Below, piece by piece: positions 22,868 through 39,361 of a stretch of DNA of 64,000 nucleotides. Made by a program: the position numbers and the translations under genes. Under the pieces are notes generated by a model. That model was not told where the DNA came from and did no database searches. It was given only the letters and a program-made list of their open reading frames with translations. The stretch is from an uncultured Solibacteraceae bacterium (GTDB lineage Bacteria; Acidobacteriota; Terriglobia; Bryobacterales; Bryobacteraceae), in the NCBI GenBank assembly GCA_964654065.1, contig CAZZHN010000005.1, positions 3,909 to 67,908 of the forward strand. Reading direction: 5' to 3'. Every line of letters starts with the position of its first letter. Positions within the stretch are counted from its first letter, which is position 1.

Positions 22868-22870
22868 ACT

Positions 22871-23484: not shown

Positions 23485-24117
23485 ATGACGCGCCGCATTG
23501 AATCGCACGAAATCGCCGGGCCCGCGGGCCGGTTGGAAGGGCTGCTGGAGGAACCGCACGACCGCGAGCCCTGGTGCGCGGTGGTTGTGTGCCATCCGCA
23601 CCCGCAGCACGGCGGGACTCTGCACAACAAGGTGGTCTACCGGCTGGCGCGCGGGCTGCGCCGCGCGGGGCTGGTGGTGCTGCGGTTCAATTATCGCGGG
23701 GTGGGCCGCAGCCAGGGAGAATACGCGGACCTGAAGGGAGAGATCGAAGACGCCCGCGCGGCATTGGCATGGCTGCGCGCGCGGTATTCGGGTTTGCCTC
23801 ACGCGCTGGCCGGCTTCTCCTTCGGCGCGCGGGTCATCACGCGTCTGGGATGCGAAATGGGCGCCGCGCGTTTTCTCATGGCGGCGGGATTTCCCACCTC
23901 CATGGGAGCTGCCGTGTACCTGGAACGCTGCGCCACTCCGAAGGTCTTCCTGCAGAGCACCAACGACCAATACGGACCGCGAGCCGAGCTGGAAGCCGCC
24001 GTGGCGCGATGGGCGGCGCCGAAGCGCGTCATCTGGATCGAAGCAACCGACCACTTTTTTGCGGAGGGGCTCGAAGCACTGGAAGAGCAGGTGGCGGCAG
24101 TGGCGGCAGAGTTGTAA
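23485..24117 (+). CDS. Alpha/beta hydrolase family protein
   Basis: Start at ATG 23485. HPHPQHGGTLHNKVV and nucleophile elbow GFSFG. 210 aa. Confidence 0.7.
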   Translation: MTRRIESHEIAGPAGRLEGLLEEPHDREPWCAVVVCHPHPQHGGTLHNKVVYRLARGLRRAGLVVLRFNYRGVGRSQGEYADLKGEIEDARAALAWLRARYSGLPHALAGFSFGARVITRLGCEMGAARFLMAAGFPTSMGAAVYLERCATPKVFLQSTNDQYGPRAELEAAVARWAAPKRVIWIEATDHFFAEGLEALEEQVAAVAAEL

Positions 24118-24140
24118 CTGTGGGATGCTGAACGGTTCTT

Positions 24141-24749
24141 ATGGATATCGTCACCGGCAAAGCGGGCTGGATTGAAGTCATCTGTGGGCCCATGTTTTCG
24201 GGCAAGAGCGAGGAACTGATCCGGCGCCTGCGCCGCGCCATGATCGCCCGCAAGCGGGTAGCGGTGTTCAAGCCGGTCATCGACGACCGCTATTCGGCCG
24301 GGGAAATTGTCTCTCACGGCGACCTGCGCCTGAACTCGCAGGTGGTTTCCGGCGCCAGCGAGATGCTGGAGCGGATCGACTGGCGGGCGGAAGTGGTGGG
24401 CGTCGACGAAGCCAATTTCATGGGCCCGGAGCTGGTGGATGTGGCGGGGCGCCTGGCCGACAGCGGCAAGCAGGTGATCATCGCCGGGCTGGATACGGAC
24501 TACCTGGGGCGGCCGTTCGCGCCAATTCCGGATTTGCTGGCGCAGGCCGAATCCATCACCAAGACGCTGGCAGTCTGCGTGCGCTGCGGCAACCCGGCCA
24601 AGCACACGCAGCGGTTGCGCGGCTCCGAGGACCTGATTGTGGTGGGCGCGGCGGATCTTTACGAAGCGCGCTGCCGGCGATGTTTCGAGCCCGGCATTCC
24701 CAAGCAGCAGGAAATCGATTTCGTGAAGGCCCGCAAGCACGAGCCGTAG
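24141..24749 (+). CDS. tdk: Thymidine kinase
   Basis: P-loop GPMFSGKSEELIRR, VDEANF, and Zn ribbon CVRCGNPA...CRRC. Confidence 0.9.
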   Translation: MDIVTGKAGWIEVICGPMFSGKSEELIRRLRRAMIARKRVAVFKPVIDDRYSAGEIVSHGDLRLNSQVVSGASEMLERIDWRAEVVGVDEANFMGPELVDVAGRLADSGKQVIIAGLDTDYLGRPFAPIPDLLAQAESITKTLAVCVRCGNPAKHTQRLRGSEDLIVVGAADLYEARCRRCFEPGIPKQQEIDFVKARKHEP

Positions 24750-24922
24750 CTGCTTATGGCGAGGGTGAGGCCTGGGCGCATTCGGAAATATTGTGACGAC
24801 TCTCGACGCGGCAGGGTGGGCGGCCCGCGCCAGGGCAGCTGGGTGCCGATCACGGCCCGCAGGCGGTGCGCCTAGTCCGCAGGGGACCGGACAGGCTAGA
24901 GTGGAAGGGAAGGAGTCTGGCA

Positions 24923-26941
24923 TTGTACAAGACCCTGTTTGTTCTCGCGCTGGCCGCCTGGAGTCTTTCCGGGCAGACCAAGGATCAGCCGGCCAGCGTG
25001 CTCGAATTCAACGTTAAGAATATCGACGCTACGGCGAATGCGTGCACGGATTTCTACCAGTATGCGTGCGGCAGCTGGCTGAAGAACAATCCGATTCCAG
25101 CGGATCAGTCGCGGTGGGGCCGGTTTGGCCAGTTGGAAGAGCACAATCGTGACGTGCTGCACGAGATTCTGGAGGCTTCCACCAAGCCGGACCCGAAGCG
25201 CGACGCCACGACTCGCCTGATCGGCGACTACTACGCGGCCTGCATGGACGAAAAGGCGGTGGAGGCCGCCGGACTGAAGCCGCTCGACGCCGAACTGGGG
25301 CGGATCCGCGGCATCAGGGACAAGGAGCAGCTGGCAGCAGCCATCGCGCATTTGCAGCGCGGCGGCGCCGACGTTATGTTCCAGTTCGGCTCCGGGCAGG
25401 ATTTCAAGGACTCCAACCAGGTGATCGCGCAAATCGACCAGGGCGGCCTGGGGCTGCCGGAGCGCGACTACTATGTGAAGCAGGACGCGGAGAGCGAGAA
25501 GCTGCGCCGTCAATATGTAGAGCACGTGGCGCGCATGTTCGTGCTGGCAGGCGAGCAACCGGCGGTGGCCAAGGCCCACGCGGAGACGGTGATGAAGATT
25601 GAGACCGCGCTCGCCCAGGGCTCGCTGGACATCGTGTCGCGGCGCGATCCGGAGAAGGTTTACCACAAGATGAGCGAGCGGGAAATGGAAGCGCTTACCC
25701 CCGCCTTTGCGTGGAAGGAATATTTGCGCCAGAGCGGGTCGCCGGATTTCGCGGCCATCGACGTGGCGTGGCCCGGGTTCCTGCAAGCGCTGAACGGCGC
25801 GATCCAACACTTCACCCTGGAGGACTGGAAGGTTTACCTGACGTGGCACCTGCTGCATTCCGATGCGCGCCTGCTGCCCGTGGCGTTCGTCAAAGAGAAC
25901 TTCGACTTCTTTGGCAAGACCCTGACGGGCACCACCGAGATGCGGCCGCGCTGGAAGCGGTGCGTGGACTTCACGGACGCCGAGCTGGGTGAAGCGCTGG
26001 GGAAGAAGTTCGTCGAGAAGACCTTCGGCGCCGAGGGGAAGGCGCGGACTCTGAAAATGGTGGACGCCCTGGAAAAGGCGCTCGGGCAGGACCTGGAACA
26101 ATTGCCGTGGATGACGGCGGAAACCAAGAAGCAGGCGCTGGTGAAACTGCATGCCATCACCAACAAGATCGGCTATCCGGAGCGATGGCGCGATTATTCC
26201 AGCGTGGCGATCCGGCGCGACGACCCGGTGGGCAATACGGACCGCACGGAGGCGTTTGAGTTCCAGCGGCAGCTAAACAAGATCGGCAAGCCGGTGGATC
26301 GCCAGGAGTGGACTATGACGCCGCCCACGGTGAACGCGTACTACGACCCTTTGATGAACAACATCAACTTCCCGGCGGGGATCCTGCAGCCGCCGTTCTA
26401 TGACAACGCGATGGACGATGCCGTGAACTTCGGCGGTATCGGCGCCGTGATCGGACACGAGCTGACCCACGGCTTTGACGATCAGGGCCGCCAGTTCGAT
26501 GCCCAGGGCAACCTGCGCGACTGGTGGACGCCGGAAGACGCCAAGGAATTCGAGAAGCGCGCGGCCTGCATCGATCAGGAGTACTCGAAGTTCGAGGTGG
26601 CGCCCGGCGCCAACGTGAATGGCAAGCTGACGCTGGGCGAGAACACAGCGGACAACGGCGGCGTGCGCATTGCGCTCATGGCCCTGTTGAACACGATCGG
26701 CGAAAGCCGCCAGAAGCTGGACGGCTTCACCCCCGAGCAGCGGGTGTTTTTGTCCTTCGGCCAGGTGTGGTGCGAAAGCGAGCGGGAAGAGTCGCTGCGC
26801 CTGCAGGTGAAGACGGATCCGCATGCGCCTGCCAGGGCGAGGGTGAACGGCGTGGTACAGAACATGCCGGAATTTCAGCGGGCGTTTTCCTGCAAGGCCG
26901 GCCAGCCGATGGTAAGCGCCAACGCGTGCAGGGTCTGGTAA
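24923..26941 (+). CDS. M13-family zinc metallopeptidase (PepO / endothelin-converting-enzyme-like), secreted
   Basis: HELTHGFDDQG zincin motif and ENTADNGG. I prefer the TTG at 24923 (GGAAGGAG 7 nt upstream, giving signal peptide MYKTLFVLALAAWSLSGQ). The ORF-track GTG at 24866 is the alternative. Confidence 0.85.
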   Translation: MYKTLFVLALAAWSLSGQTKDQPASVLEFNVKNIDATANACTDFYQYACGSWLKNNPIPADQSRWGRFGQLEEHNRDVLHEILEASTKPDPKRDATTRLIGDYYAACMDEKAVEAAGLKPLDAELGRIRGIRDKEQLAAAIAHLQRGGADVMFQFGSGQDFKDSNQVIAQIDQGGLGLPERDYYVKQDAESEKLRRQYVEHVARMFVLAGEQPAVAKAHAETVMKIETALAQGSLDIVSRRDPEKVYHKMSEREMEALTPAFAWKEYLRQSGSPDFAAIDVAWPGFLQALNGAIQHFTLEDWKVYLTWHLLHSDARLLPVAFVKENFDFFGKTLTGTTEMRPRWKRCVDFTDAELGEALGKKFVEKTFGAEGKARTLKMVDALEKALGQDLEQLPWMTAETKKQALVKLHAITNKIGYPERWRDYSSVAIRRDDPVGNTDRTEAFEFQRQLNKIGKPVDRQEWTMTPPTVNAYYDPLMNNINFPAGILQPPFYDNAMDDAVNFGGIGAVIGHELTHGFDDQGRQFDAQGNLRDWWTPEDAKEFEKRAACIDQEYSKFEVAPGANVNGKLTLGENTADNGGVRIALMALLNTIGESRQKLDGFTPEQRVFLSFGQVWCESEREESLRLQVKTDPHAPARARVNGVVQNMPEFQRAFSCKAGQPMVSANACRVW

Positions 26942-27019
26942 AAGGGGAATCGGAAGAGCCGGGCGCCTGATCGCGCCCCCAGCGAGCAACGCCAGGAGAA
27001 CGTTCCCAACCTCGCCGCG

Positions 27020-27964
27020 CTATCGGGCGCCTTCCAGGGTGGACTGCACCAGGTCGCCCAGCTGTTCCGCGCTGAACTCATTGCCTTCCAGGTTGGCGGC
27101 CAGCCTGCCTTGGCGGTCGATGACCGCCGTGCGCAGCGCATGGGTGAATGTGCCGTCGCTGCTCCAGAAGCTGACGCCAAACTCCCGGCACACGGCTTTC
27201 ACCGCCGGCGGCGGCCCGGTCAGGAAGTGCCATGAGCTGGGGTCCACCTTCCACGTGCTGGCGTACCTGGCTAGAACATCGGGCTGGTCGTTCACAGGAT
27301 CGAAGGTGATGCTGAGCAGCTCCAGGTCTTTTCCCAAACGGCCGGCGAAGCGCTTTTGCAAGCGCGCGAAATTGTTTGAGAGCCGCAGACAGTAATTGGG
27401 GAGCGGGCAGGTGGTGTAAAAAAATGTGAGCGCCACGATCCGGCCCCGGAATTCGGAGAGGGTGACGCGCCGCCCGGTCTGGTCGATCAAGGTAAAGTCG
27501 GGGACGAGCTGGCCTGGTGACAGGTCGTTGGTTCGCGCGATGCCTTGATCCTGCTCCTCGATCAGTTGCAGCCGCCGCGCGCGCAGGGCCTCCTGTTCCA
27601 GGCTTTGGAAGTGATGCAGGCGGATGTCCAGAACATAGGAGTCATCCTTCTCCACAACCAGGGTGAAGTCCACGAAGGCGCCCGGCTGCAAGCCGCTGAG
27701 CGCCTGCGGCTCTCGCACGGAAAACGGCATCACCATGGCCTCCATGTAGCCGGGGATGGCGTTAATGGACGCGACGATGGTTCGATGCGGCTGGTCGACC
27801 TTGAGGATGATGCCGGTTACGGGATAAGACTGGGCGGCGCGCATCCGCGCGGGCGCGACAGCGAGCGTCATGAGCAATAATGCAGCGGCGGGCGCCATGA
27901 GCCGTTCAGGCGCAGCACGCCGCCGGCGAGCTCCACAAGGGCCGGCTTGGGCAGGATGCAGCAT
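27020..27964 (-). CDS. SCO1/SenC-family copper chaperone fused to an N-terminal CusF-like metal-binding domain
   Basis: N-terminal part YPVTGIILKVDQPHRTIVASINAIPGYMEAMVMPFSV (Met-rich beta domain). Thioredoxin-fold part FRGRIVALTFFYTTCPLPNYC...H (Cys pair spaced CPLPNYC). ATG at 27898 is the alternative start. Confidence 0.8.
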   Translation of the reverse strand: MLHPAQAGPCGARRRRAAPERLMAPAAALLLMTLAVAPARMRAAQSYPVTGIILKVDQPHRTIVASINAIPGYMEAMVMPFSVREPQALSGLQPGAFVDFTLVVEKDDSYVLDIRLHHFQSLEQEALRARRLQLIEEQDQGIARTNDLSPGQLVPDFTLIDQTGRRVTLSEFRGRIVALTFFYTTCPLPNYCLRLSNNFARLQKRFAGRLGKDLELLSITFDPVNDQPDVLARYASTWKVDPSSWHFLTGPPPAVKAVCREFGVSFWSSDGTFTHALRTAVIDRQGRLAANLEGNEFSAEQLGDLVQSTLEGAR

Positions 27965-27968
27965 ATAG

Positions 27969-30596
27969 CTAACGGCTGCGGGATTGCGATTCGGCTGCGG
28001 TCGCCGCGGGTTCCCGGTGAAGGCCTCCTAAGCGAACGCGAGGCCGGACCAGCCGCTTGTAATCGCGGGCGAACTGGCGGATTTCGATGGCCTGGTTCTT
28101 CTCCACGTTGCTAAAGCGCTGCGCATTTCCGATGTCGCCCGGCCAGAGGATTTCCAGGCTCACGTTTTGCGCCGACTTTCCTAGTCCGATGTGCTGCTCC
28201 ATCGGCGAGGCGCCGAACGACCCGCCGCTGCCGACCGTCCGGTAGATGGAACGCGTTCCACGGGCGCTGCTCACGGTTACCTTGATGCGCGCGCCGACGC
28301 CGGGGCGATTCGCTTTCACGCCGACGAGTTTGAGGCTGATCCAGTCGTTATCGTGGCCGGGGTTCTCAAACAGGCGAAAAGCGTGGCTGTCTCCCGGCTC
28401 GGCGCCGCCAATCACGGTCAGGATATCTTCATCGCCGCGGTTGTCCATGTCGGCGAATGCAATCGCGTGCCCCTTGTGCAACTCGCCGGTGCCGGAGGAT
28501 GCGGTGATATCGACGAAGGACTTCCCCTCCTTGTTGCGCAGCAAGACGTTCGGAACCATGGCTGCGTATGAGGGACTGCCGGTGCCCAGATAGATGTCCA
28601 GGTAGCCGTCGTTGTCCACATCGCCGAAATTAGCGCCCATCGGCATGAAGACCTTGTTCAACCCGGCTTCCTCAGTGACGTCGCGGAAGGCTCCATTCCC
28701 GAGGTTCTTGTACAGCTTCAACGTGGTGGCGTTATGCGGAAGGCCGAAGTAGGTCTTGAGGGTCTCCTCGATGGACATATAGAAGCTGGTGACAAAGAGG
28801 TCCGGCCAGCCATCGTTGTCATAGTCGAAAAACCAGGTGGCGAAGCCGCGTCCGGAGCCCAGCACGCCGGCTTGCTTTGCGATGTCGGTGAAGGTGCCGT
28901 CGTGATTGTTATGGTAGAGCGAGCCGGCGCCCTGCAGGTTGGAAACGTAAAGGTCCATGTAACCGTCGTTGTCGTAGTCCCCGGCGGCGACTCCCTTGGT
29001 CACGGCGACCCGGTCCACACCCGCGGCGTGAGCGATATTCGTAAAAGTGCCGTCGCCGTTGTTGTGGTAGAGCTGGTTGGGGCCGACCTCGTTGCCAACG
29101 AAAAGATCGAGGAAGCCGTCATTGTCGATATCGACCCATACGGCTGTCTGCGTATCCGCGGTCACTTGGCCGAGGCCGCTCTCGAGAGTGACATCAGTGA
29201 AGGTGCCATTGCAGTTGTTGCGCAGCAGAGACACACGCTGCGGAACAGTCTGCCAGCCGCCGCGCAGAACCAGGAGATCCATGCAACCATCGTTGTTGTA
29301 ATCGGTCTGCATCAGATTGAGGCCGCCCAGTTGAGTGGAAAGGCCGGCGCTCTCGGTGCGGTCTGAGAACGTGCCATCGCCGTTGTTATGAAAGTAGTGC
29401 ATGGGGGCGCAGGTGCCCTGCGACGACGTGACCACGTCGAAACGGCCGTTGCCCTCGAAGTCATCCACCGCAACGCCGCCTGCCATCGAAAAACTGTTCA
29501 AGCCTGCCACAGGAGCCCGGTCGATGAACCGGCCGATATCCTCGGCCGAGGCGAACTGCGCGGGCGGCAGCAGATACGCTTTCGGAACTCCATTCGGGTA
29601 CTTACCCAGCGTGAGGTAGGAGATATTCAGCAGCCACTTCACTTCGAGGTCGTCCGGCTTCCGCTCGAGATACTTCAGAAAATGCTGGGCCGCCTTTTCC
29701 GAGTCCGCCGGCAGGCGGTACGCGGTGCTGACGCGCGGCGGAAACAGGCACCTGTCGCCGGGCTTGCGGTAGGCGTCGTTCTCCATTTCGGACTTGTGAA
29801 GGTAGCCGACACCGAGAAGCTCATCCAGGTAGGACACGGTATCCGCGGAGGACGCCGGAACACTCCGGTAGACAATCTCCCACTGCTCGATCGCCTGGTC
29901 CATGTTTCCGTCATACGCCCACAGTTGCCCCAGCGCCACCCGCATCGACATCGTGTCGTAAGCGGACCGGGTCTGCGCCCCTTCGGAAGCCGGATCGAGG
30001 TACTTTGCGGTGCCCTCGCGGGCCACCTCCAGCGACTTACGGCGGGCGAAGCAGATTTGCTGCAGATTCTGGCTCCAACCGGGCGGCTTCGGAATGTCCC
30101 CGAGAGCGGTTTCGGCCTCGAAGAGGCCGGAAAGGTCGAATGCGTAGCGGACGCCATTCGTGGGACTCAGCGCCTGCTGGATCGCGCGCTCCGCCTCCCG
30201 GGCCGCGGCTAACTCGGACGCCGGGACAACTTTCAGAATGGCAAAGCCGGCCGGCAGGTTGATTACTTGAGAAATGCGGCCCGGTTGAAGACCCCGCAGC
30301 GCATCGCGCAACTCGGCCCGCAAGGTCCCGGGAGCGACCTCACCCATCCAGCCGCCGTCGGCCGCCGTCGCGTCCACCGACTTTTCCTGGGCCAGCACGC
30401 CGAAGTCCGCGCCACGGTTCAGTAGTTCGAGGATCCGCTGCGCCTCGGCCAGGGAATTGACGACGATCAGCCGCAACGGGACGGTCCCGGCCGGCGAATC
30501 CTGTGCAACGGTCGGACGAAACAGCAGTCCCGCGCCCAGAATCACGGCCGCAAACCACGCATGCCTTACACGCCAGACCCTCAGAAAGCGTCGCAT
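27969..30596 (-). CDS. CRTAC1-family protein (FG-GAP/VCBS repeats + ASPIC/UnbV domain) with N-terminal parvulin-like domain
   Basis: Six D-x-D/N-x-D-G repeats (DYNNDGCMDLLV, DIDNDGFLDLFVGN, DYDNDGYMDLYVSN, DYDNDGWPDLFVT, DVDNDGYLDIYLG). UnbV_ASPIC end (RSIYRTVGSGGSFGASPMEQHIGLG). N-terminal PpiC-like segment (GADFGVLAQEKSVD...GGWMGEV...FAILKV). Confidence 0.85.
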   Translation of the reverse strand: MRRFLRVWRVRHAWFAAVILGAGLLFRPTVAQDSPAGTVPLRLIVVNSLAEAQRILELLNRGADFGVLAQEKSVDATAADGGWMGEVAPGTLRAELRDALRGLQPGRISQVINLPAGFAILKVVPASELAAAREAERAIQQALSPTNGVRYAFDLSGLFEAETALGDIPKPPGWSQNLQQICFARRKSLEVAREGTAKYLDPASEGAQTRSAYDTMSMRVALGQLWAYDGNMDQAIEQWEIVYRSVPASSADTVSYLDELLGVGYLHKSEMENDAYRKPGDRCLFPPRVSTAYRLPADSEKAAQHFLKYLERKPDDLEVKWLLNISYLTLGKYPNGVPKAYLLPPAQFASAEDIGRFIDRAPVAGLNSFSMAGGVAVDDFEGNGRFDVVTSSQGTCAPMHYFHNNGDGTFSDRTESAGLSTQLGGLNLMQTDYNNDGCMDLLVLRGGWQTVPQRVSLLRNNCNGTFTDVTLESGLGQVTADTQTAVWVDIDNDGFLDLFVGNEVGPNQLYHNNGDGTFTNIAHAAGVDRVAVTKGVAAGDYDNDGYMDLYVSNLQGAGSLYHNNHDGTFTDIAKQAGVLGSGRGFATWFFDYDNDGWPDLFVTSFYMSIEETLKTYFGLPHNATTLKLYKNLGNGAFRDVTEEAGLNKVFMPMGANFGDVDNDGYLDIYLGTGSPSYAAMVPNVLLRNKEGKSFVDITASSGTGELHKGHAIAFADMDNRGDEDILTVIGGAEPGDSHAFRLFENPGHDNDWISLKLVGVKANRPGVGARIKVTVSSARGTRSIYRTVGSGGSFGASPMEQHIGLGKSAQNVSLEILWPGDIGNAQRFSNVEKNQAIEIRQFARDYKRLVRPRVRLGGLHREPAATAAESQSRSR

Positions 30597-30819
30597 CCAG
30601 TGAGTCCATCATAGCGCCTGGGACGCGGCGGTTCTTTCCCCGGCCTAAGCCGGGAAAGGATTGGGCCGGCCGAGGGCGGGGTTCCAGAGGGTGGGATCGC
30701 CAGGCGCGGAACCCTCCGCATGTTACCGTACATTCGGCGCTGGATCCCTGAAAATACGGCAGCAGCCGCCCAGGCGCAGGGAACCAGTACTCCGCCAGAA
30801 AAATCCTTGTCCGTGCGCC

Positions 30820-30848
30820 TTGACACAACGCCGGAAACAGCTGAGAAT
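30820..30848 (+). promoter_or_regulatory. Candidate sigma70-type promoter of the six-gene operon: TTGACA-17 nt-GAGAAT
   Basis: TTGACA at 30820-30825 and GAGAAT at 30843-30848, then GGAGGG and the GTG start at 30869. Confidence 0.35.
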
Positions 30849-30868
30849 AGCCGTCACGGAGGGAAAGT

Positions 30869-31777
30869 GTGGCCAGGAGGGGGCTGACCCACGAGGATTG
30901 CTACATCGTTGTGCGGGGGTTGCGCCACCACTACGTCGATTATGGCGGCGCAGGGGAAGTCATCATCGCTCTTCCCGGTCTGGTGCAGACCGCCCGCGCT
31001 TTTGACTCGATTGCTCCACTGCTGGTGCCTCACGTCCGCCTGATCGCGCTCGATTTTCGCGGCCGGGGCGAGACCGATTGGGGTCCGCCGGAGAGGTATC
31101 GCTTCGATCAGTATTTGAAGGACGTCCGCGAGTTCATCAATCTTATGGGTTTTGAGAAGGTCGGGCTGATCGGCACCTCGCTGGGCGGCTTTATTGCCCG
31201 CATGTTCGCGACCGCGTACCCGGCCCGGGTGACCCGATTGATCCTCAACGATTGTGCGATCGGTGGCAATATGGCCGGATTACTCCGCGTCGGGGCGCGC
31301 CCGGCGACCGCGCCGAACGAGTTTGCCAGCCTGCAGGAGGCGGTGGAATGGTTTCACGCCACGCGCCCGGGCATGGATCGCATGGACGCTGAAACGCAGG
31401 AAGAGTATGTCTCACATTACTTGAAAGCCACGCCGGGAGGCGGGCTATGTTTCGACTGCGACCCTGCGGTGATCCGGATGGCCGATGGACTGGTGAACCA
31501 GCTCGCCGGGCTCCGGCGGACGGACCTGGAATCGAAGGTGGTGTGGGAACAGGCGAGCCGTTTAACCATGCCGCTGCTGTTGATTCGCGGAGCGCTGAGC
31601 GACGTAATCTCCCCGGTCACGATAGCCCGCATGCAAGAGGTGCTGCCTCACGCCAAATCGGTAGAGATCCCAGGGGTCAGCCATTCACCGACTCTCTACG
31701 AATCGGAAGCCCAGTCCGCCATCCGGGACTTCTTTGGTTTTCGAACCCAGGAACTAGCTGCGGAGGCGGCCATATAA
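30869..31777 (+). CDS. Alpha/beta hydrolase (operon gene 1)
   Basis: GTG start after GGAGGG. Nucleophile elbow GTSLGG and C-terminal GVSHSP (His). 302 aa. Confidence 0.8.
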   Translation: MARRGLTHEDCYIVVRGLRHHYVDYGGAGEVIIALPGLVQTARAFDSIAPLLVPHVRLIALDFRGRGETDWGPPERYRFDQYLKDVREFINLMGFEKVGLIGTSLGGFIARMFATAYPARVTRLILNDCAIGGNMAGLLRVGARPATAPNEFASLQEAVEWFHATRPGMDRMDAETQEEYVSHYLKATPGGGLCFDCDPAVIRMADGLVNQLAGLRRTDLESKVVWEQASRLTMPLLLIRGALSDVISPVTIARMQEVLPHAKSVEIPGVSHSPTLYESEAQSAIRDFFGFRTQELAAEAAI

Positions 31778-31819
31778 GCGGCTCTGCGCACGAAGCGCAC
31801 GAAGTATTGAGGGAATACT

Positions 31820-33124
31820 ATGCTCACTGCAACCGAAGCACAGATGTCAATCGGAGGGGTTTCGTCCGCCAGCCTGGCCAGCGAGTTCGGGACCCCTCTC
31901 TACGTTTACGATGCCGACGAGGTGCGCCGGTCGTTTCGCCGGATTGTGAGTGCCGTGCCGTATGCGCCGGTGACAATTCACTACGCGTGCGTAACGAATG
32001 CGAACCTGGCGCTGATGCGGCTGATCCACGCACTGGGCGGCGGCATCCATGCCAACACGTGGGGCGATGCCGTGATGGCCCTGCATGCCGGCTTCGCGTC
32101 CAAGGACATTGTCTACAGTGGAAGCAATATCAGCGCGGACGACTTTCAGAACATTTTTGCCAACCGGGTTCGCGTCAATGTGAATTCGCTGAGCCAGCTC
32201 CGCCAGTATGCGGCCCATCTGCATGACTTCGAGCGGCGGCACGGCGGCAATCTCAACGTCATGCGGGGAGTTGGCATGCGCATCCACCTGGAAGACAAGA
32301 TGCTCTACAGCCGGATGGGAGTGAAGACCAGCGAGATTGCCGAGGCGCGCGACATCGCGGCACGTGAGGGACTGCGGCTCACGGGCGTGCACTACTATCG
32401 CGGCACCGGCACCATCCACATCCATCATTTTCTGGAGCCGTTCCCGTACCTGATGGAGGTGGGCAAGCAGCTCGGCGAAACGCTGGAGTATGTCGACATC
32501 GGCGGCGGTTTCGGCTATCCCTACATGCCGGGCGGCCCGGACGACTTCAACTGGGAATTCTTCGGCGCCAGCATGAACGGCATGCTGGAGGATCTTTCGA
32601 GCACGATCGGGCGGCGGGTGTCGCTCGTACTCGAGCCGGGCCGGAGCGTGGTGGCTTCGTCCGGGTATGTGCTGTCCCGGGTAGTGGCGGTAGACCGGCG
32701 CGCGGCGGGCGGGCAGGTGGTGGGCGTCGATACCACGGTGAGTCACATCAGCAGCGAGACGTTTCGCGTGTACGGTGGCTACCGGCGCATCGCCCTTGCC
32801 AACCGGGATAGTGACGAACAGCCGGTGCCGACCGACGTGGTCGGATCCACGACATTCTCCGACGACTACATCGGACGAGCCCCGCGCTACGACAAGACCG
32901 ACAGAGGAATCCTGCTTCCCCCGCTTCATGAAGGGGACCTGCTCGCCGTGCTCGACGCTGGCGGCTACGGATTTGCGTTCGCATCCAACTTCCTCAACAA
33001 GCCGAGGCCGGCAGAAGTCCTGATCGACGGCGGACAGGCGCGCCTGGTCCGCAGGCGCGAGACCTACGACGACATGCTCCGGCTCCAGCAGGAAGTGGAG
33101 CTGAGCAAATCGGCGACAGCCTGA
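31820..33124 (+). CDS. Fold-type-III (Orn/DAP/Arg decarboxylase family 2) homolog lacking the PLP Schiff-base lysine (operon gene 2)
   Basis: Clear DapDC-like collinearity: FGTPLYVYD, VDIGGGFGYPY, LEPGRSVVA, DAGGYGF, ARLVRRRETYDD. The Y-A-x-K-x-N site reads HYACVTN (Lys replaced by Val). C-E-S-G-D reads TFSDD. H-x-G-S reads YYRGTG. Confidence 0.85.
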   Translation: MLTATEAQMSIGGVSSASLASEFGTPLYVYDADEVRRSFRRIVSAVPYAPVTIHYACVTNANLALMRLIHALGGGIHANTWGDAVMALHAGFASKDIVYSGSNISADDFQNIFANRVRVNVNSLSQLRQYAAHLHDFERRHGGNLNVMRGVGMRIHLEDKMLYSRMGVKTSEIAEARDIAAREGLRLTGVHYYRGTGTIHIHHFLEPFPYLMEVGKQLGETLEYVDIGGGFGYPYMPGGPDDFNWEFFGASMNGMLEDLSSTIGRRVSLVLEPGRSVVASSGYVLSRVVAVDRRAAGGQVVGVDTTVSHISSETFRVYGGYRRIALANRDSDEQPVPTDVVGSTTFSDDYIGRAPRYDKTDRGILLPPLHEGDLLAVLDAGGYGFAFASNFLNKPRPAEVLIDGGQARLVRRRETYDDMLRLQQEVELSKSATA

Positions 33125-33127
33125 CCA

Positions 33128-34162
33128 ATGTACATCCTGGTCTCGGTGCCCAATGAGGCGTTCCATCGCGTGATGGTGGCGCGCGCCCTGCATCGCAGGC
33201 TCGGCGTGGAATCGTCGGTGTACCGCAACGCTTCTGAACTGCTGCGCCGCGTGGAGCGATCCTACGGCGGGCGCATCGTTCTGCTCGACTGGACCAGGCG
33301 GCAGATTGCAGCCGATGTGAAGGTGGCGGGCGCCTCCGGACTCGCCATCGGAAAGGATGCGATCTACTGTTCGAGCTGGACCGGGAACTGCGTCGAGCGC
33401 CTGCAGAGAGGCGCGCCGCGCCGCGAGATCTCTCACCCCTGGTTCAACCATCTGCACACGGTGGAGTTTACCGAGGCGGGGACGCTGCTGGTGGCTAGCG
33501 CCGGCGCGGACCTGATTCTGGAGATGTCGGTAGAAGGGGAGGTGCTTTGGCATTGGTTCGGGCCGGATCACGGATTCGCGCCGAAGACGCCCGGGCCATC
33601 CTCCTCGTTCGACCCGGATACCGATTACCGCGAGGTGCGCCGCAGCACCTCCGAGCGGGGCATGCACGTGACCTCGGCGCTGGCGGTGGGCGCCGGCAAG
33701 GTGCTGGCCGCCCTGTTTCACCAGGGCCAGCTGATCCTGATCGACCGCAAGACCGGCGCCGCCGAGACCATACTCAGCGGACTGGTGCGGCCGCACGGCA
33801 TCCACCGGCGTCCCGGCGGCTTCATTCTTTCCGACACGCTGGGCCATCGCATCCTGCTTCTCGACGATGCCCTCCGGATGTGCACCGAGATTCCGTTTGG
33901 TTCGCAGTGGCTGCAAGACACGATTCTCACCAGCGCCGGGACTTACTTCACGCTGGAGAATGTCCACATCGATCAGGAGCCGCAGCCCGGGCTGTCCAAC
34001 CACATTGCCGAGATTGATCGGGCCGGCACGCCTCTGGGCGGGATTCAAGTGCCGCCCGACCACCGGCTCTTCGCGGTGCGCGAGATCCCTGACGATGCGG
34101 CGCAGTGGATGATCGCCGAGTGGGGATCGAGCGGCGATCTGGATGGCTGGGCGTGGAACTGA
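33128..34162 (+). CDS. Hypothetical protein, possibly beta-propeller-like (operon gene 3)
   Basis: 344 aa, starting 3 nt after gene 2. Repeated strand-like segments (LLVASAGADLILEMSVEGEVLWHW, GQLILIDRKTG, GGFILSDTLGHRILLLD). No family recognised with confidence. Confidence 0.6.
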   Translation: MYILVSVPNEAFHRVMVARALHRRLGVESSVYRNASELLRRVERSYGGRIVLLDWTRRQIAADVKVAGASGLAIGKDAIYCSSWTGNCVERLQRGAPRREISHPWFNHLHTVEFTEAGTLLVASAGADLILEMSVEGEVLWHWFGPDHGFAPKTPGPSSSFDPDTDYREVRRSTSERGMHVTSALAVGAGKVLAALFHQGQLILIDRKTGAAETILSGLVRPHGIHRRPGGFILSDTLGHRILLLDDALRMCTEIPFGSQWLQDTILTSAGTYFTLENVHIDQEPQPGLSNHIAEIDRAGTPLGGIQVPPDHRLFAVREIPDDAAQWMIAEWGSSGDLDGWAWN

Positions 34163-35211
34163 CGGCGTCGCATTACTTCACCGATCGCCTGGAAGAGGCG
34201 TACGCCCACATCGACCGGCTGGGTGCGCACTTCTGTTTCCGGCTGGCGCACGAGTTCCGGTTGTTGGAGGAGCCGAACGCAAAACCGGCCTGGCTGGCGC
34301 CGGAGGCGGAATATCTTTGGCGCTATGTCCTCGACGTGCTCGCAGAGGAGGGGTGCCTGGTGCGCGAAGGCGGCGGGTGGCGCGCAGCCGCGCCGTGCCC
34401 CGCCGATGAGAGTTCGCGGTTGTACGCCGGGGCCGCGTCGGCCTGCCCCGAAGCGGCGGCGATCTTCGAGCTGATGAAACGCTGCTACGATCATGCTCCT
34501 GCGTTTCTGAGCGGCAGGCAGACGGGCGTGAGTGTCGTTTTTCCGCGCGGCGACCTGTGCTTATGGGAGCGCGTGCACCGGCAGGACGCTGTCATGTCGA
34601 TCTACGCGGACCCGGTTCCGGCCGCCCTGGCGGACGTGTTGCAGCCGGGCGCGCGGGTGCTCGAGGTGGGTGCGGGAGTGGGCGCGGTATTGCGCCGGTG
34701 TCTGCCGATGCTGAAGGAGGGGGAACTTGCCGAATACTGGTTCACCGACCTCGGGCGGCTCTTCGTGCAGCGTGCCGAGCAGGAATACGCAGGGGAAGGG
34801 TTGGCCCGATTCGCGGTGCTCGACCTGGACCAGCCGCTCGCGCCGCAGGGGTTCGCGCCGGGACAGTTCGACGTGGTTCTGGGTGTGAACGTGTTCCATT
34901 CGGCGCGGAACCTGGAATTCAGCTTGCAGGAATTGCGATCGCTGCTGCGGGACGGGGGAACTGTGATTCTGGGAGAGGGTTCGCCGCCGCGGGAAGGGAA
35001 GCGATGGCGGCTCGACTTTGTCTTCGCCTTCCTGCGAGGCTGGTGGGATGTCACGCTCGATTCCGCGTTCCGGCCGCGACCCGGCTTCCTGTTTCCCCGC
35101 GAGTGGATCCGGCTGTTCCAGCACTGCGGCTACCAGCGCGTCGCGGCGTTTCCGGGCGAGCAATGGTTTCCAGGCGCCTGCCGCGGCGGACTGGTGGTAG
35201 CCACAAAATGA
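34153..35211 (+). CDS. Class I SAM-dependent methyltransferase with N-terminal helical domain (operon gene 4)
   Basis: Motif I ARVLEVGAGVGAV, then DVVLGVNVFH and GGTVILGE. GTG 34153 overlaps the gene 3 stop (GTGGAACTGA). ATG 34105 is the alternative start. Confidence 0.75.
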   Translation: MELTASHYFTDRLEEAYAHIDRLGAHFCFRLAHEFRLLEEPNAKPAWLAPEAEYLWRYVLDVLAEEGCLVREGGGWRAAAPCPADESSRLYAGAASACPEAAAIFELMKRCYDHAPAFLSGRQTGVSVVFPRGDLCLWERVHRQDAVMSIYADPVPAALADVLQPGARVLEVGAGVGAVLRRCLPMLKEGELAEYWFTDLGRLFVQRAEQEYAGEGLARFAVLDLDQPLAPQGFAPGQFDVVLGVNVFHSARNLEFSLQELRSLLRDGGTVILGEGSPPREGKRWRLDFVFAFLRGWWDVTLDSAFRPRPGFLFPREWIRLFQHCGYQRVAAFPGEQWFPGACRGGLVVATK

Positions 35212-36860
35212 CCGCTGATCTGCTTCTGGGAACTGACTGGCTGCGGCCGGTTCACCATGCTCCGGGGTATGTGTTTGGTGCGGCGGCGCCGGCGGAGTCG
35301 ACGGTGACGGGAGTGCTGGCCCGGCAGGCGGCGGCGATGCCGGATGCTCCGTTCCTGACCGGCCTGGACGATGCGCCGCGGCGGGTGCTCAGGTATGCCG
35401 AGGCGCATGCGGAAGTCTCGCGCCGCGTGGGTGTGCTTCGCGGATGGGGGTTGCAGCGGGGAGATCGCATCGGCGTCCTCGGGCAGAATTCGCTCGATTT
35501 CGTGCTCGCCGTGCTGGCATGCCTTGAGGCGGGTGCGGTCGCCGTACTTCTGAATCACCGGGATCCGGTGGCGCGCATCGCTAATCGCGCGGCGTTCACC
35601 GGCGTCCGGTTTCTCCTCTATGAAGCCTGTCTGGCGGCGCTCGCCGAAAACTGTACCGGTGTGGAACGGCTGTGCGGGTTCGACGAATTGAAGCGCCTGG
35701 CCGCCAGCGTCAGGGAGACCCGCAGTAGTGCGCCGCCCAAGCCGACGGACGCGGCCCTCATCTTTTTCACCTCGGGGACGACCGGCATGCCGAAGGCGGT
35801 GGTTCAGTCCCATTACGCGCTGGCGCAGAATGCGCTCTCCCTGGCGAGGCACCATCGTATCCTGCGGGGGATGAACCTGCTTTGCGTGTTGCCGCTGCAC
35901 CACGTCAACGGGCTGGAGTTCACGATTCTGGGCGTTCTTTGCGGCGGTGGTCACACGGTGGTCTGCCGGGGGTTCGACGGGCTGAAATTCTGGACCCTGG
36001 TGGAGGAGCACCGGATCGAGATCGCGAGCCTGGTGCCGAACCTGCTGCGGCTGCTGGCCGACCGTCCCGCACTGCGCGGAGGCCGCGGCAAGAGCCTGCG
36101 CTACGCGGTTTCGGCGGCGGCGCCGCTTTCCATCGCCATCGCGGAGAGCGCGTGGTCGCGTCTCGGACTGAGGATTGTGCAAGGCTACGGCCTGTCCGAA
36201 GTGACCAACTTTACCTGTGTCATGCCGCCCGATTTGAGCGTGGAGGAATATGAGCGGTGGATGACGAAGGGCCGGCGGACCTCGATTGGGCCGGCGCTGC
36301 CGGGGCAGGAGGTCCGCATCGATGTTGAAGCGGGCGAGGAAGGCGAGATTCTCATCCGCGGCAACTCGGTGATGAGCGGTTATCTGCACAACGAGCAGGC
36401 GACAGAAGAAGTATTCTCAGGTGGATGGTTCCATTCCGGCGACCTCGGCTACGCGATTGCGGACGGTGCGGGGCGCCAGTTCATCCATGTGTCGGGACGG
36501 GTGCGCGAAATTGCCAAGCGTTCCGGCGCCATGATCAACCTGCTGGAGGTGGATGAGGTGTTGGGCACGATCCCGGGAGTTTCGGATTTCGCGTCGGCAG
36601 CGTTTGCCAACAAGTGGGTGGACGAGGAGATCGGCGCCGTCGTGGTGAAGGAGCCGGACAGCAGCGTGACCGAGGAGAGCGTCCTGGAGTACTGCCGGCA
36701 GCGGCTGCCGTTTACGGAGTCGCCCAAGGCGGTCGTGTTCGTGGAGGACGTGCCGCGTACGGCCACCGGCAAGGTTCGACGGGCCGAGATCGCGAGCCAT
36801 TTTGCGGCGCACGCGGACCGCCTGTTCGTGGATCGCCGGGCCGCGGTGGCTAAGGAGTGA
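35208..36860 (+). CDS. ANL-superfamily adenylate-forming ligase (acyl/aminoacyl-carrier-protein or CoA ligase) (operon gene 5)
   Basis: ATGA overlap with gene 4. Core motifs FFTSGTTGMPKAVVQSH, QGYGLSEVT, GWFHSGDLGY, GRVREIAKRSG, PRTATGKVRR. The 767-aa ORF-track version is an out-of-frame upstream extension. Confidence 0.85.
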   Translation: MTADLLLGTDWLRPVHHAPGYVFGAAAPAESTVTGVLARQAAAMPDAPFLTGLDDAPRRVLRYAEAHAEVSRRVGVLRGWGLQRGDRIGVLGQNSLDFVLAVLACLEAGAVAVLLNHRDPVARIANRAAFTGVRFLLYEACLAALAENCTGVERLCGFDELKRLAASVRETRSSAPPKPTDAALIFFTSGTTGMPKAVVQSHYALAQNALSLARHHRILRGMNLLCVLPLHHVNGLEFTILGVLCGGGHTVVCRGFDGLKFWTLVEEHRIEIASLVPNLLRLLADRPALRGGRGKSLRYAVSAAAPLSIAIAESAWSRLGLRIVQGYGLSEVTNFTCVMPPDLSVEEYERWMTKGRRTSIGPALPGQEVRIDVEAGEEGEILIRGNSVMSGYLHNEQATEEVFSGGWFHSGDLGYAIADGAGRQFIHVSGRVREIAKRSGAMINLLEVDEVLGTIPGVSDFASAAFANKWVDEEIGAVVVKEPDSSVTEESVLEYCRQRLPFTESPKAVVFVEDVPRTATGKVRRAEIASHFAAHADRLFVDRRAAVAKE

Positions 36861-36865
36861 ATGGT

Positions 36866-37132
36866 ATGGTCGAGCTGACGAACCGTGTGCTGGCGTGCGC
36901 CAACAAGGTGGCCGGAAAATCGCTGGCGCTGCCGGATGGCGAAGATCTTGCCCTGGAGGCGTTCCAGTTCGATTCGTTGAGCATTTTCGCCTTCATGGTC
37001 GAGCTCGAAAACGAGTTTGGGGTGAGCATTGACGAGGCTCTTCTGAACGATCAGGAACTGCGCACCGTGCGGTCAACGGCGGCGTTCGTGGCATCGCAGC
37101 AGGGCGGGGGAACGGGAGCGGCCGCCGGTTAG
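36866..37132 (+). CDS. Stand-alone acyl/peptidyl carrier protein (operon gene 6)
   Basis: AAGGAG 8 nt upstream of ATG 36866. Phosphopantetheine-site context FQFDSLSIFAFMVELENEFGV. About 88 aa. Confidence 0.8.
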   Translation: MVELTNRVLACANKVAGKSLALPDGEDLALEAFQFDSLSIFAFMVELENEFGVSIDEALLNDQELRTVRSTAAFVASQQGGGTGAAAG

Positions 37133-37143
37133 GCGCACGAACC

Positions 37144-37167
37144 GGGCCGGGCATGCCCGGCCCCTAC
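37144..37167 (-). repeat. REP-like element (family 1): GTAG + perfect 20-nt GC palindrome
   Basis: Minus strand reads GTAG-GGGCCGGGCATGCCCGGCCC. It lies 12 nt after the carrier-protein stop. An identical 24-nt core recurs at 54258-54281. Confidence 0.6.
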
Positions 37168-37290
37168 GAACGGATCGCGGCGTGCCGAACTTGCCTTGAG
37201 CGGGTCTGGCCATTCTGCTATCCTCAATACGTTGAATTCATGACTAGTTCTTTCCCGGCCGTGTGAGGCCGGGTCACTCCGAGGTTTACC

Positions 37291-38037
37291 ATGTCAGGCC
37301 ATTCCAAGTGGGCCACCATCAAGCATAAGAAGGCGGCTACGGACGCGAAGCGCGGAAAAGCGTTCACGCGCATCATCAAGGAAATCACCATCGCCGCACG
37401 CAGCGGAGGCGACCCGGACGGCAATCCCCGGTTACGCAGCGCTGTGCTGGCGGCCAAAGCCGCGAGTATGCCCTCGGACAACATCAAGAAGGCGATCATG
37501 CGCGGCACCGGCGAGCTGGAGGGCGGGCAGATCGAAGAAGTGATGTTCGAAGGCTACGGGCCGGGCGGCGCTGCGGTGCTGGTGAACGTGGCCACGGACA
37601 ACCGCAACCGGACGGTGAGTGAGCTGCGCCATGTCTTTTCCAAGAACGGCGGCAACATGGGAGAGCAGGGCTGCGTCGCCTGGATGTTCGACCGCAAGAG
37701 CCAGATCTACGTGGATGGCGAAAAGGCGGGGGAAGACCAGCTGATGAACGTCGCGCTGGAAGCGGGCGGCGACGACCTGCGCCAGGACGGCGAGAGCTGG
37801 GAAATCCTGTCGGCTCCAGAGGCCCACGAAGCGGTGCAGAAAGCGCTGGCGGCCGCCGGCATTCCGGTGCTGGAGGCCTCGATCGCCATGGTTCCCAAGA
37901 ACTTGGTGAAGCTGGAAGGCAAGAACGCTTCCGGCATGCTGCGGCTCAACGATGCGCTGGAAGAGCACGACGACGTGCAAAACGTGTACTCCAACTTCGA
38001 TATCGACGAGAAGGAGATGGAGGCCCTCGAGCGCTGA
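37291..38037 (+). CDS. yebC: YebC/PmpR-family DNA-binding transcriptional regulator
   Basis: [37 protein letters not shown]... is diagnostic. Confidence 0.9.
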
Positions 38038-38038
38038 C

Positions 38039-38533
38039 GTGCGGGTGCTCGGCATCGATTGCGGGTCGGCGCGCACCGGTTACGGCATCATTGACAGCGA
38101 CGGATGCCGCCACCGCATGGTGGCTGCCGGCGTGATCCGCACCAGCACAGGCTGGCCGTTTGAAAAGCGGCTGCTCAAAATTGCCGGCGACCTGCGCGCG
38201 CTGCTGCGGGAGCACGCACCGGAAGCGGCGGCGGTGGAGGGAATTTTCTACTCGGCCAACGTGCAGACGGCGTTGAAGCTGGCACAAGTGCGCGGCATCG
38301 CGCTGCTGGTGGTGGCGGAGGCGGGCGTGGCGCTGGCCGAGTATTCGCCTCTCGAAGTGAAGACCAGCGTGGTCGGTTACGGGCGGGCGGAAAAATCGCA
38401 GGTGCAATTGATGGTGCAATCGCTGCTGCACCTGGCGGCCACGATTGAGTCCGAGGACGCAGCTGATGCCCTCGCCGTGGCGATCTGCCACGCCACCCGC
38501 GAAGCAACGCAGGCGAGGATTGAGCGGGCATGA
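38039..38533 (+). CDS. ruvC: Crossover junction endodeoxyribonuclease RuvC
   Basis: GTG start. [22 protein letters not shown] and [13 protein letters not shown] motifs. The ORF-track 5' extension overlaps yebC. Confidence 0.9.
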
Positions 38534-39153
38534 ACGTCGCGGTCCGGCTCTCCCTTTTGCTCTGCACGGCGATGGTTTTGGCTGCCGGCGACGGGCACCT
38601 GTTCTTTTCCCGCACGTTCCCGGGCAGCGCTCCGCCATACATCGAAGTGCGTGTCGAAGCCACTGGCGACGCGGAATACCGGGAGGCGACCGACGAGGAA
38701 TTGCCGGTAAAATTCAAGCTCTCAGACGAGGAGATTGCAACCGTTTTCGGCCTGGTGGAGAAGCTGGATTATTTCCGGCATCCGCTCGAATCGCCCGCCA
38801 AAGTGGCGTTTATGGGAACCAAACTGTTGCGCTACGAGGGCGACAAGGCCAAGGGCGAAGTAAAGTTCAACTACTCCGAGGATGTTACGGCGCAAACGCT
38901 GCTGGAATGGTTCGAACGGATGGCGGAATCGGCGGAACTGCACATCGATCTGGAGCGCGCCGCCAAGTACGATCATCTCGGCGTCATGAAAGCACTGGTC
39001 GCGCTGGATGCGGCGCTGGATGGCCACCAGGTGGTGGCGGCGGGGCAGTTCCTGCCGCTGCTGGAACGCATCGCCAACAACGAGACCTACATGCACACCG
39101 CGCGGACGCTGGCGGCAGACCTGGCCGGAGCTATTCGCAACCCGAAGAAGTGA
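38530..39153 (+). CDS. Secreted hypothetical protein translationally coupled to ruvC
   Basis: ATGA overlap with ruvC. Signal peptide [20 protein letters not shown]. 207 aa, no recognised family. It occupies the position where ruvA commonly follows ruvC. Confidence 0.6.
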
Positions 39154-39361
39154 GGGCGGGGATCTGGCGCCGACGGGCGGCGGAGGAAGTGGTACTGTAG
39201 GAATGAATCGCGCGGAAGAGGCTCACGCCTTTTGTGTTGGGTTACGGTCCGTCGGTCCCCTGGTTTAGGGGAAAGCGGCTGGGGGTATACCAGCACGGCC
39301 GGGCATCCGAAATGGAGACCCAGGCTATGCCGTTGGTATTTCCGATTCAGGAGGACTTTTC

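Follow-up and report, generated by a model that had tools for sequence, protein, structure and literature searches.

Six translationally coupled genes, designated g1 to g6, were analyzed in a 64,000-nucleotide stretch of DNA from an uncultured Solibacteraceae bacterium (contig CAZZHN010000005.1, positions 3,909 to 67,908; the window). The cassette is proposed to be an accessory operon, shared by horizontal transfer, that encodes a small-molecule pathway dependent on a carrier protein; this reading is given about an even chance of being right. Its logic of a ligase, an acyl carrier protein (ACP) and tailoring enzymes is familiar, and the cassette itself is a conserved and mobile biosynthetic unit. 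The original prediction, made from the letters of the window, had described a six-gene carrier-protein operon of unassigned function; the polyketide synthase (PKS)-type identity of g4, a five-gene core and a 10.2-kb indel that contains the genes were not part of it.

Gene content and proposed pathway

Syntenic contexts were obtained from an exact look-up of homologues and from a metagenome scan. The order g3–g4–g5–g6 with g1 upstream was found in about 15 independent metagenomic loci, and the arrangement is therefore far beyond chance. A synteny survey had been suggested for the six-gene block as a whole. The order indeed recurs, but of about 18 informative loci some 12 have g2 and six (L003, L064, L065, L073, L080 and L084) do without it, so that the core consists of five genes with g2 as a frequent accessory. 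The cassette occurs in at least three phylum-level backgrounds, the hosts being Acidobacteriota, an alphaproteobacterial metagenome-assembled genome (MAG; L003) and, in L002, a contig that bears PSCyt2/PSD1 genes of planctomycete type. The host of the window is an acidobacterium of the Bryobacteraceae, its YebC having 93–95% identity to that of named MAGs. The catalytic motifs of g1, g4, g5 and g6 are kept across the cassette orthologues.

The six proteins were compared with Pfam and NCBIfam at curated cutoffs, and with structures in the PDB and by Foldseek. Pfam assigned Abhydrolase_1 to g1, Orn_Arg_deC_N and Orn_DAP_Arg_deC to g2, Methyltransf_12 to g4, AMP-binding and AMP-binding_C to g5, and PP-binding to g6, and no Pfam or NCBIfam family was found for g3. 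In the hidden Markov model (HMM) searches, which had been proposed as a check, none of the six proteins reached a curated NCBIfam cutoff for any characterized pathway.

The g4 protein matched Methyltransf_12 with 59 bits against a 30-bit cutoff, and its best PDB match was the C-methyltransferase (C-MT) of CurJ (5thy, 4.2e-38, 134 bits). Residues 48–339 of g4 align to CurJ 99–389, covering both the N-terminal lid and the class I S-adenosylmethionine (SAM) core. Further PDB matches were DisA, AprA MT2, AmxMT1 (7dmb, 2e-19), PksCT, LovB and PsoF. The SAM motif GxGxG is intact, and the catalytic His (NVFH) and Glu (LGE) of g4 align to NVLH and LYE of CurJ with a spacing of 26 residues in both proteins. 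This His–Glu dyad, which is kept in the g4 orthologues, is the catalytic device of C-MTs that methylate the α-carbon of ACP-bound β-ketoacyl thioesters (PMC9821293). Judged by its sequence, g4 is a PKS-type C-MT of the CurJ kind, and its homology points to a thioester on an ACP as the expected substrate.

The ligase g5 has the hallmarks of the ANL superfamily. PF00501 (AMP-binding) was matched with 7.6e-71 and 239 bits and PF13193 (AMP-binding_C) with 37 bits, and the core motifs TSGTTGMPKA, GYGLSE, SGDLG and TGKVRR, noted from the start, are present and kept in orthologues; the catalytic Lys of A10 is in place. The best NCBIfam match was the long-chain acyl-CoA ligase PRK06187 (272 bits, cutoff 476 bits), while the PDB matches comprised FadD13, oxalate-CoA ligase, feruloyl- and 4-coumarate-CoA ligases (4CL) and malonyl-CoA synthetase (MatB). 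The amino-acid adenylation model TIGR01733 gave 175 bits against a cutoff of 317, and the A4 region reads PLHHVNG, as in acyl-CoA ligases and not as in the amino-acid A-domain signature. These two features make a non-amino carboxylic acid the more likely substrate. Of the two options in the earlier suggestion, that a carboxylic or amino acid is adenylated and tethered, the first is thus the more probable.

As predicted, the last gene encodes a stand-alone carrier protein with a Ser site. The g6 protein matched PP-binding at 5e-7 (30.3 bits, cutoff 20.8 bits), the phosphopantetheine-attachment Ser lies in FDSLS, and its DSL is kept in orthologues. In the syntenic loci the g6 gene always follows g5, and g1 is always located upstream of the cassette. 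The g1 protein belongs to Abhydrolase_1 (6.3e-20) and has a GTSLGG nucleophile elbow, an SD acid and an SH histidine, a triad kept in the orthologues. Its best NCBIfam match was PcaD, with 69 bits against a 256-bit cutoff, and its best PDB match was 3bwx, a protein of unknown function. The proposed role of g1 is that of an off-loading hydrolase or an acyltransferase.

In the proposed pathway, g5 would adenylate a non-amino carboxylic acid and load it as a thioester on g6. Direct loading of g6 is suggested by the invariant coupling of the two genes. The methyl group of SAM would then be moved by g4 to the activated α-carbon of the tethered thioester; because the cassette has no ketosynthase (KS), the substrate of g4 would have to be of the β-oxo or malonyl type. 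The His-rich propeller g3 might further transform the tethered or released intermediate. As an optional accessory, g2 could be a binding or chaperoning partner of adenylation, or else an enzyme that works independently of a pyridoxal phosphate (PLP) Schiff base. The Ser–Asp–His hydrolase g1 would finally off-load the product, which would be a small metabolite derived from an acid and C-methylated. This product may in some lineages be elaborated by B12-radical-SAM or CMAS-like methylases or by PAPS-type sulfotransferases, or the cassette adjoins a PKS. The sequences show the domain families, the intact state of the catalytic motifs, the invariant coupling of the genes and accessory neighbors of a biosynthetic kind; direct ACP loading, the β-oxo or malonyl-type substrate and what g1, g2 and g3 do are inferred.

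Several points weigh against the proposed pathway. Its main weakness lies in the β-oxo group that C-MTs of this type need: the core cassette has neither a ketosynthase nor an oxidase, and nothing else in it would obviously supply the group, so that the substrate of g4 is unexplained unless the acid activated by the ligase is itself of the β-oxo or malonyl type. The ligase is without the insertion typical of fatty acyl-AMP ligases (FAAL) and its product could be a CoA thioester instead of a directly loaded ACP. Locus L074 is without g4, the propeller gene leading straight to the ligase gene (3931–6645), which may be natural variation or may stem from the assembly. When g3 was searched against the PDB by sequence and by fold, generic NHL/YVTN propellers were returned and no enzyme-specific match, and the roles assigned to g2 and g3 are guesses. 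A survey of the literature on DapDC/ACP/C-MT clusters, on Lys-less decarboxylases and on exosortase cassettes yielded nothing on the cassette.

The decarboxylase-like protein and the propeller

The g2 protein aligns over its full length to the structures of diaminopimelate decarboxylase (DapDC) and BtrK (BtrK 117 bits, TM 0.8). Its AlphaFold2 model (pLDDT 90.4) has the complete fold, with TM values of 0.8–0.88 to DapDC structures. Inspection of the active site agreed with the description of g2 as a catalytically stripped homologue. The PLP lysine is replaced by Val (HYACVTNAN vs YAVKAN), the PLP-stacking His by Tyr (HYYRGTG in place of HxHxGSQ) and the Cys-Glu motif by Thr-Phe (TTFS in place of CES), and the GGGFG, EPGR and GxYG motifs are retained. 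Since the Schiff-base Lys is missing, g2 can have no internal PLP aldimine. With 244.4 bits against the LysA model TIGR01048 (cutoff 297.9) and an active site that is not intact, g2 is not a member of that family. No compensating Lys was found in g2, and no Lys is invariant anywhere across 49 orthologues.

The loss is shared by a whole clade. Among the 120 best matches at 90% clustering, all 116 full-length proteins have Val in the PLP-Lys column. Among the best representatives at 50% identity, about 30 of 133 full-length proteins have V, M, F or I at this position, and these always also carry Tyr for His and have lost Cys-Glu. Many other residues are invariant throughout the Lys-less clade, which argues for a conserved, remodeled site and not for decay. 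No solved structure and no NCBIfam model falls within the clade; the family profile of g2 has antizyme inhibitor among its distant PDB matches.

More distant Lys-less genes were observed in L062 (8095–12701) and L063 (10001–15934), the sources being a genome of Microcoleus and a large metagenome contig from JGI. There they stand beside one or two Asn-synthase-like genes and a gene for an unannotated protein of 415–448 aa, with the Lys-less motif types HYAIVCNKN and HFASVTNGN. This conserved trio, which differs from the cassette, could be another orphan system with the same dead-decarboxylase fold.

Carboxylate-adenylating enzymes are thus present in both Lys-less contexts: the partners are an ANL ligase and an ACP in the cassette, and Asn-synthase-like enzymes in cyanobacteria, myxobacteria and Blastocatellia. 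It is conceivable, if somewhat unlikely, that Lys-less DapDC-fold proteins form a widespread and so far undescribed enzyme or adaptor family paired with carboxylate-adenylating enzymes, serving either a reaction independent of the PLP internal aldimine or the gating of substrate. With the His-rich propeller also taking part, the cassette product would then be a methyl-branched metabolite of new structure, made by uncultured soil bacteria. The interest of the clade would be high if it does have a chemistry of its own.

The original prediction had called g3 a 344-aa propeller-like protein. An AlphaFold2 model (pLDDT 89.4, pTM 0.89) with at least 24 strands in six blades agrees with this. The top Foldseek matches were NHL/YVTN propellers (E ~1e-10, TM ~0.5), and the family profile matches NHL domains in the PDB. 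On the strength of the model, g3 is a six-bladed NHL-type β-propeller, which is an assignment of fold and not of function. Relatives of 25–54% identity share invariant His110, His180, His198, His223, Asp128 and Asp236, and this pattern points to a catalytic or metal site. At 90% clustering 93 homologues were found, 92 of them at ≥47% identity. All are unnamed or merely called 'hypothetical protein', and nearly all come from metagenomes. The propeller gene is the signature gene of the cassette.

Similarity of g3 to arylsulfate sulfotransferases (Arylsulfotrans, ASST; PF05935/PF14269) stayed below the gathering threshold (E = 0.28, 11 bits), and the best score in a distant relative was 20.1 bits against a threshold of 24.2. 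Sub-threshold Arylsulfotrans matches were found in 11 of 30 members of the superfamily (best E = 3.6e-4), and NHL matches are equally frequent.

Distant g3 homologues were also seen in other settings. In L025 (5974–14983) such a gene is followed by genes for an APS kinase, an ATP sulfurylase, an NMT1-type binding protein and an ABC transporter. L007, L011, L014, L018, L019, L021, L024, L028, L034, L040, L047, L052 and L060 are similar. These homologues linked to sulfur genes have 25–42% identity to g3 and are seen in many Ktedonobacteria; some are preceded by a PALP enzyme, and several have sub-threshold Arylsulfotrans matches. In a Levybacteria MAG the ATP sulfurylase and APS kinase genes lie just upstream of the distant homologue. 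Elsewhere, in unrelated clusters of small-molecule type, a distant propeller is found near HMGL-like, 2-hydroxyacid dehydrogenase, MFS transporter and aldehyde dehydrogenase genes in Fulvivirga marina (L043, 6941–14164), and near aldehyde dehydrogenase, carbamoyltransferase and esterase genes in Nocardia tenerifensis (L027, 7129–14266). Members of the propeller superfamily apparently serve a variety of pathways.

Locus layout, variants and genomic setting

The open reading frames (ORFs) and junctions of the six co-directional genes were all as originally described (Table 1), and a check of the window placed them at 30869–37132 on the + strand. The gaps are 42 nt between g1 and g2 and 3 nt between g2 and g3. 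A start/stop overlap of 10 nt, GTGGAACTGA, joins g3 and g4 at 34153–34162, and an ATGA overlap joins g4 and g5 at 35208. The g4 frame is open from 34105; because the orthologue alignments begin at GTG 34153, this is the likely start. For g6 the start is ATG 36866 (88 aa) or GTG 36857 (91 aa), with AAGGAG at 36852–36857, eight nt ahead of the ATG. The GTG start of g1 is preceded by a GGAGGG Shine–Dalgarno sequence at 30858–30863.

Table 1. Features of the cassette and its surroundings, in window coordinates.
Feature	Position	Strand	Basis
g1, α/β-fold hydrolase, 302 aa	30869–31777	+	ORF and Pfam
g2, DapDC-fold protein, 434 aa	31820–33124	+	ORF and Pfam
g3, six-bladed NHL-type β-propeller (modeled), 344 aa	33128–34162	+	ORF and AlphaFold2 model
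g4, stand-alone PKS-type C-methyltransferase (by sequence)	34153–35211	+	Pfam and PDB matches
g5, ANL-superfamily adenylating ligase, 550 aa	35208–36860	+	Pfam and PDB matches
g6, stand-alone acyl carrier protein	36866–37132	+	Pfam PP-binding
Sigma-70-like promoter candidate, TTGACA-17-GAGAAT	30820–30848	+	Motif scan
GC-rich perfect palindrome, REP-like hairpin, GGGCCGGGCATGCCCGGCCC	37144–37163	.	Identical copy elsewhere in the window
10,240-bp segment missing in relatives	26950–37189	.	Comparison with Bryobacteraceae L147/L148

The predicted promoter is present upstream of g1. Nevertheless, a scan of the region found one promoter-type site against a chance expectation of 1.0, so that TTGACA-17-GAGAAT is a candidate only. 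The hairpin was likewise found where it had been reported, 12 nt past the g6 stop codon and at the right-hand end of the 10.2-kb indel. The window has a second, identical copy at 54258–54277, where 0.04 would be expected by chance, which makes the name 'REP-like' (repetitive extragenic palindromic) a fair one. The two copies have a common core of about 27 nt, CGGGCCGGGCATGCCCGGCCCCTAC, and both are intergenic; they probably belong to a REP-like repeat family of this genome. Folding of the hairpin region was no better than that of shuffled sequence (z = −0.98) and no T-run follows it, and the hairpin is therefore not a clear intrinsic terminator.

Two related Bryobacteraceae assemblies, L147 and L148, are collinear with the window over 18766–26949 and 37190–39158, with a nucleotide identity of about 84%. 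The interval from the M13 peptidase gene to yebC measures 87 bp in them (9811–9897), compared with 10,240 bp in the window. On the extra segment the six-gene cassette and the hairpin are accompanied by a SCO1/CusF-like gene and a CRTAC1-like gene. As close relatives are without it, the cassette is accessory. No flanking direct repeats were found around the indel. The tetranucleotide correlation of the cassette is 0.965, compared with 0.969–0.987 for background windows, and is thus marginally atypical. Without repeats and with composition only marginal, both a gain here and a loss in the relatives are possible.

The genes around the cassette encode an outer-membrane lipoprotein with a YfiO domain, a response regulator, the M13 peptidase, SCO1, the CRTAC1-like protein, YebC and RuvC. 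The flanks were described at the outset as free of exosortase, PEP-CTERM and exopolysaccharide (EPS) genes, and neither the window nor the syntenic loci have any within 10 kb; the flanks are made up of housekeeping genes. The two neighbors that share the indel with the cassette are both on the − strand. One (27020–27964) encodes a CusF-like copper-binding domain fused to SCO1/SenC. The other, CRTAC1-like (27969–30596), encodes an N-terminal PPIC-type rotamase domain, FG-GAP repeats and ASPIC/UnbV.

A scan of 185,579 GTDB species representatives found a close copy of the cassette only in L003, and none of the carriers identified is a cultured organism. The nearest copy, L067, has 74–90% amino-acid identity over the shared genes and is not beside yebC. 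Some loci contain additional genes. A B12-binding radical-SAM (rSAM) gene lies inside the cassette between g2 and g3 in L001 (8133–10001) and L078 (3894–5759) and between g3 and g4 in L089 (626–2488), while the L079 contig begins within an rSAM gene (1–1107) just upstream of g3. Sulfotransfer_3 genes are found near the cassette in L001, L077–79 and L088. The flanks of L001 and L077–79 also hold a CMAS-like methyltransferase, a TE-PP protein and a phosphopantetheinyl transferase (PPTase), and alkyl-sulfatase-like metallo-β-lactamase (MBL) genes are also near expanded cassettes. By gene content, the loci with rSAM genes are an expanded version of the pathway. In L002 a PKS of the order FAAL–ACP–KS–acyltransferase (AT)–dehydratase (DH) starts about 0.9 kb past g6.

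Four of the six cassettes without g2 carry instead a conserved upstream gene for a cupin-domain protein of about 175 aa, the C-terminal part of which matches Cupin_2/AraC_binding (L003, 2112–2642; L064, 8096–8608; L065, 8049–8585; L084, 447–980). This gene may be a functional replacement of g2 or a fragment of a regulator.

Alternative explanations and known systems

The strongest alternative is that the cassette supplies a starter unit, making an α-methylated acyl-ACP for a PKS or fatty acid synthase (FAS) encoded elsewhere, to be used in trans. AprA and AmxMT1/AmxACP3-type systems, which have themselves been proposed to act in this way, would be the parallel, and g4 is homologous to PKS-embedded C-MTs, to AprA MT2 and to the stand-alone AmxMT1 with its dedicated ACP. 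The PKS about 0.9 kb past g6 in L002 also fits. However, a PKS adjoins the cassette in just one of about 15 loci, and no PKS lies within 10 kb of it in the window and the 767-kb contig. In addition, the hydrolase g1 is always present, which suggests that the product is released within the cassette. Starter supply is regarded as unlikely.

In a second explanation g4 would O-methyl-esterify an ACP-bound dicarboxylate and g1 would later remove the ester. The trio of methyltransferase, hydrolase of BioH-like fold and ACP fits the logic of the methyl-ester protecting-group pairs BioC/BioH and Art28/Art9, in which a methyltransferase and an α/β hydrolase act on an ACP-bound dicarboxylate (PMC8302727). 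The resemblance of g5 to dicarboxylate (oxalate, malonate) CoA ligases points the same way, as do a weak BioH match of g1 (35 bits) and a weak BioC match of g4 (16 bits). Nevertheless, these scores are far under the cutoffs of 207 and 185 bits, and g4, with its lid and His–Glu dyad, is of the PKS C-MT type, whereas BioC and Art28 belong to the short UbiE/BioC type. Such a protecting-group role has little probability.

A link to sulfation was given a similarly small chance. Here g3 would be an ASST-like propeller for sulfuryl transfer or sulfate esters, and the cassette would make or remodel a sulfated, lipid-like compound, possibly by way of a CurM-like sulfonation with subsequent hydrolysis and decarboxylative elimination. 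The weak Arylsulfotrans matches in 11 of 30 superfamily members agree with this idea, as do the APS kinase and ATP sulfurylase genes that adjoin distant g3 homologues (many Ktedonobacteria and the Levybacteria MAG) and the Sulfotransfer_3 and alkyl-sulfatase-like genes that flank the L001, L077–79 and L088 cassettes. Against it, all ASST matches are under the gathering score, with E = 0.28 for g3 itself, and NHL matches are equally frequent. Most cassettes, including that of the window, have no sulfur genes nearby, other distant g3 homologues are found in unrelated clusters, and the operon of the Ktedonobacteria resembles sulfur assimilation.

The logic by which a tethered amino acid is decarboxylated is established for butirosin, fluvirucin and closthioamide (PMC11350588), and the original prediction had drawn a parallel to BtrK. 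In a pathway of the BtrI/J/K or Vin/Flv/Cta type, Glu, Asp or a diaminopimelate (DAP)-like acid would be tethered to the ACP through its side-chain carboxyl and α-decarboxylated to a β- or γ-amino acyl-ACP. The parts match, with an adenylating enzyme, a stand-alone ACP and a DapDC-fold protein; g2 aligns to BtrK over its full length, and a dedicated carrier protein with a Ser site is encoded next to the adenylating enzyme, namely g6 beside g5. The parallel nevertheless finds no support in the details. Every g2 orthologue has Val for the PLP lysine with no invariant Lys, its stacking His and the proton-donor motif Cys-Glu are also replaced, and g2 is missing in six loci that keep all other genes. 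The PLHHVNG motif and the low score for amino-acid adenylation make g5 look more like an acyl-CoA ligase. Decarboxylation of this type is considered very improbable.

Least credible of all is that the cassette is a member or analogue of the exosortase-A-associated cassette (a ligase, a PLP decarboxylase, two hydrolases and an ACP; models TIGR03098–03101) and modifies an exopolysaccharide or a PEP-CTERM protein: the parts lists overlap, as had been pointed out, but g2 scored 116 bits against a TIGR03099 cutoff of 478.45 (the best of 49 Lys-less relatives reached E = 6.5e-49), the ligase model was not among the best 25 of 108 NCBIfam matches of g5, all of which were below cutoff, the hydrolase models were not among the best 25 of 29 matches of g1 at E ≤ 0.01, and no exosortase, PEP-CTERM or EPS genes lie within 10 kb of the cassette in the window or the syntenic loci. 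Membership in this system was refuted by the HMM scores and the neighborhood.

For the proposed carrier-protein-dependent C-methylation pathway, the wider setting is the natural-product chemistry of acidobacteria and other uncultured soil phyla, a large reservoir that has hardly been drawn on. At 6.3 kb the cassette is small and self-contained; it recurs across phyla and lends itself readily to heterologous expression. It holds a free-standing PKS-type C-MT without an accompanying ketosynthase, together with two protein families without an assigned function, the His-rich NHL propeller and the Lys-less DapDC clade. Solving its chemistry would assign a function to about 90 clusters of propeller orthologues. 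A further gain could be an explanation for a whole branch of proteins annotated as 'diaminopimelate decarboxylase' that cannot work as the usual decarboxylases, the genes of the Lys-less clade being currently misnamed in public annotation.

Compared with known systems, the cassette shares enzyme classes with the exosortase-A system and differs from it by the extra C-MT and the propeller. From BioC/BioH and Art28/Art9 it differs by the methyltransferase family. Like BtrJ/BtrI/BtrK, FlvN/L/O and CtaD/E/F, it unites in a single operon an adenylating enzyme with a stand-alone ACP and a protein of the DapDC fold. Unlike these modules, its conserved core includes a C-MT, a propeller and a hydrolase, and its DapDC-fold protein is without the catalytic residues and is optional. 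For g2 itself, antizyme inhibitor offers a precedent of a fold-type-III decarboxylase homologue that has lost catalysis and turned into a binding protein. Antizyme inhibitor is eukaryotic and regulatory and has an unrelated context, whereas the g2 clade is bacterial, has a highly conserved and remodeled site and is linked to adenylating enzymes.

The C-MT domains of CurJ (5thy), DisA, PksCT, LovB (CMeT) and PsoF share with g4 the lid and core, the GxGxG motif and the dyad; these domains are embedded in PKSs, whereas g4 is free-standing in an operon without KS, AT or ketoreductase (KR). The anammox AmxMT1 has a modest similarity to g4, and its system lies in a type II fatty acid synthesis (FASII) cluster without ligase, propeller or DapDC-like partners. 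Nevertheless, g4 and g6 resemble AmxMT1 and AmxACP3 as a stand-alone C-MT with a dedicated ACP and no megasynthase (7dmb; PMC9821293).

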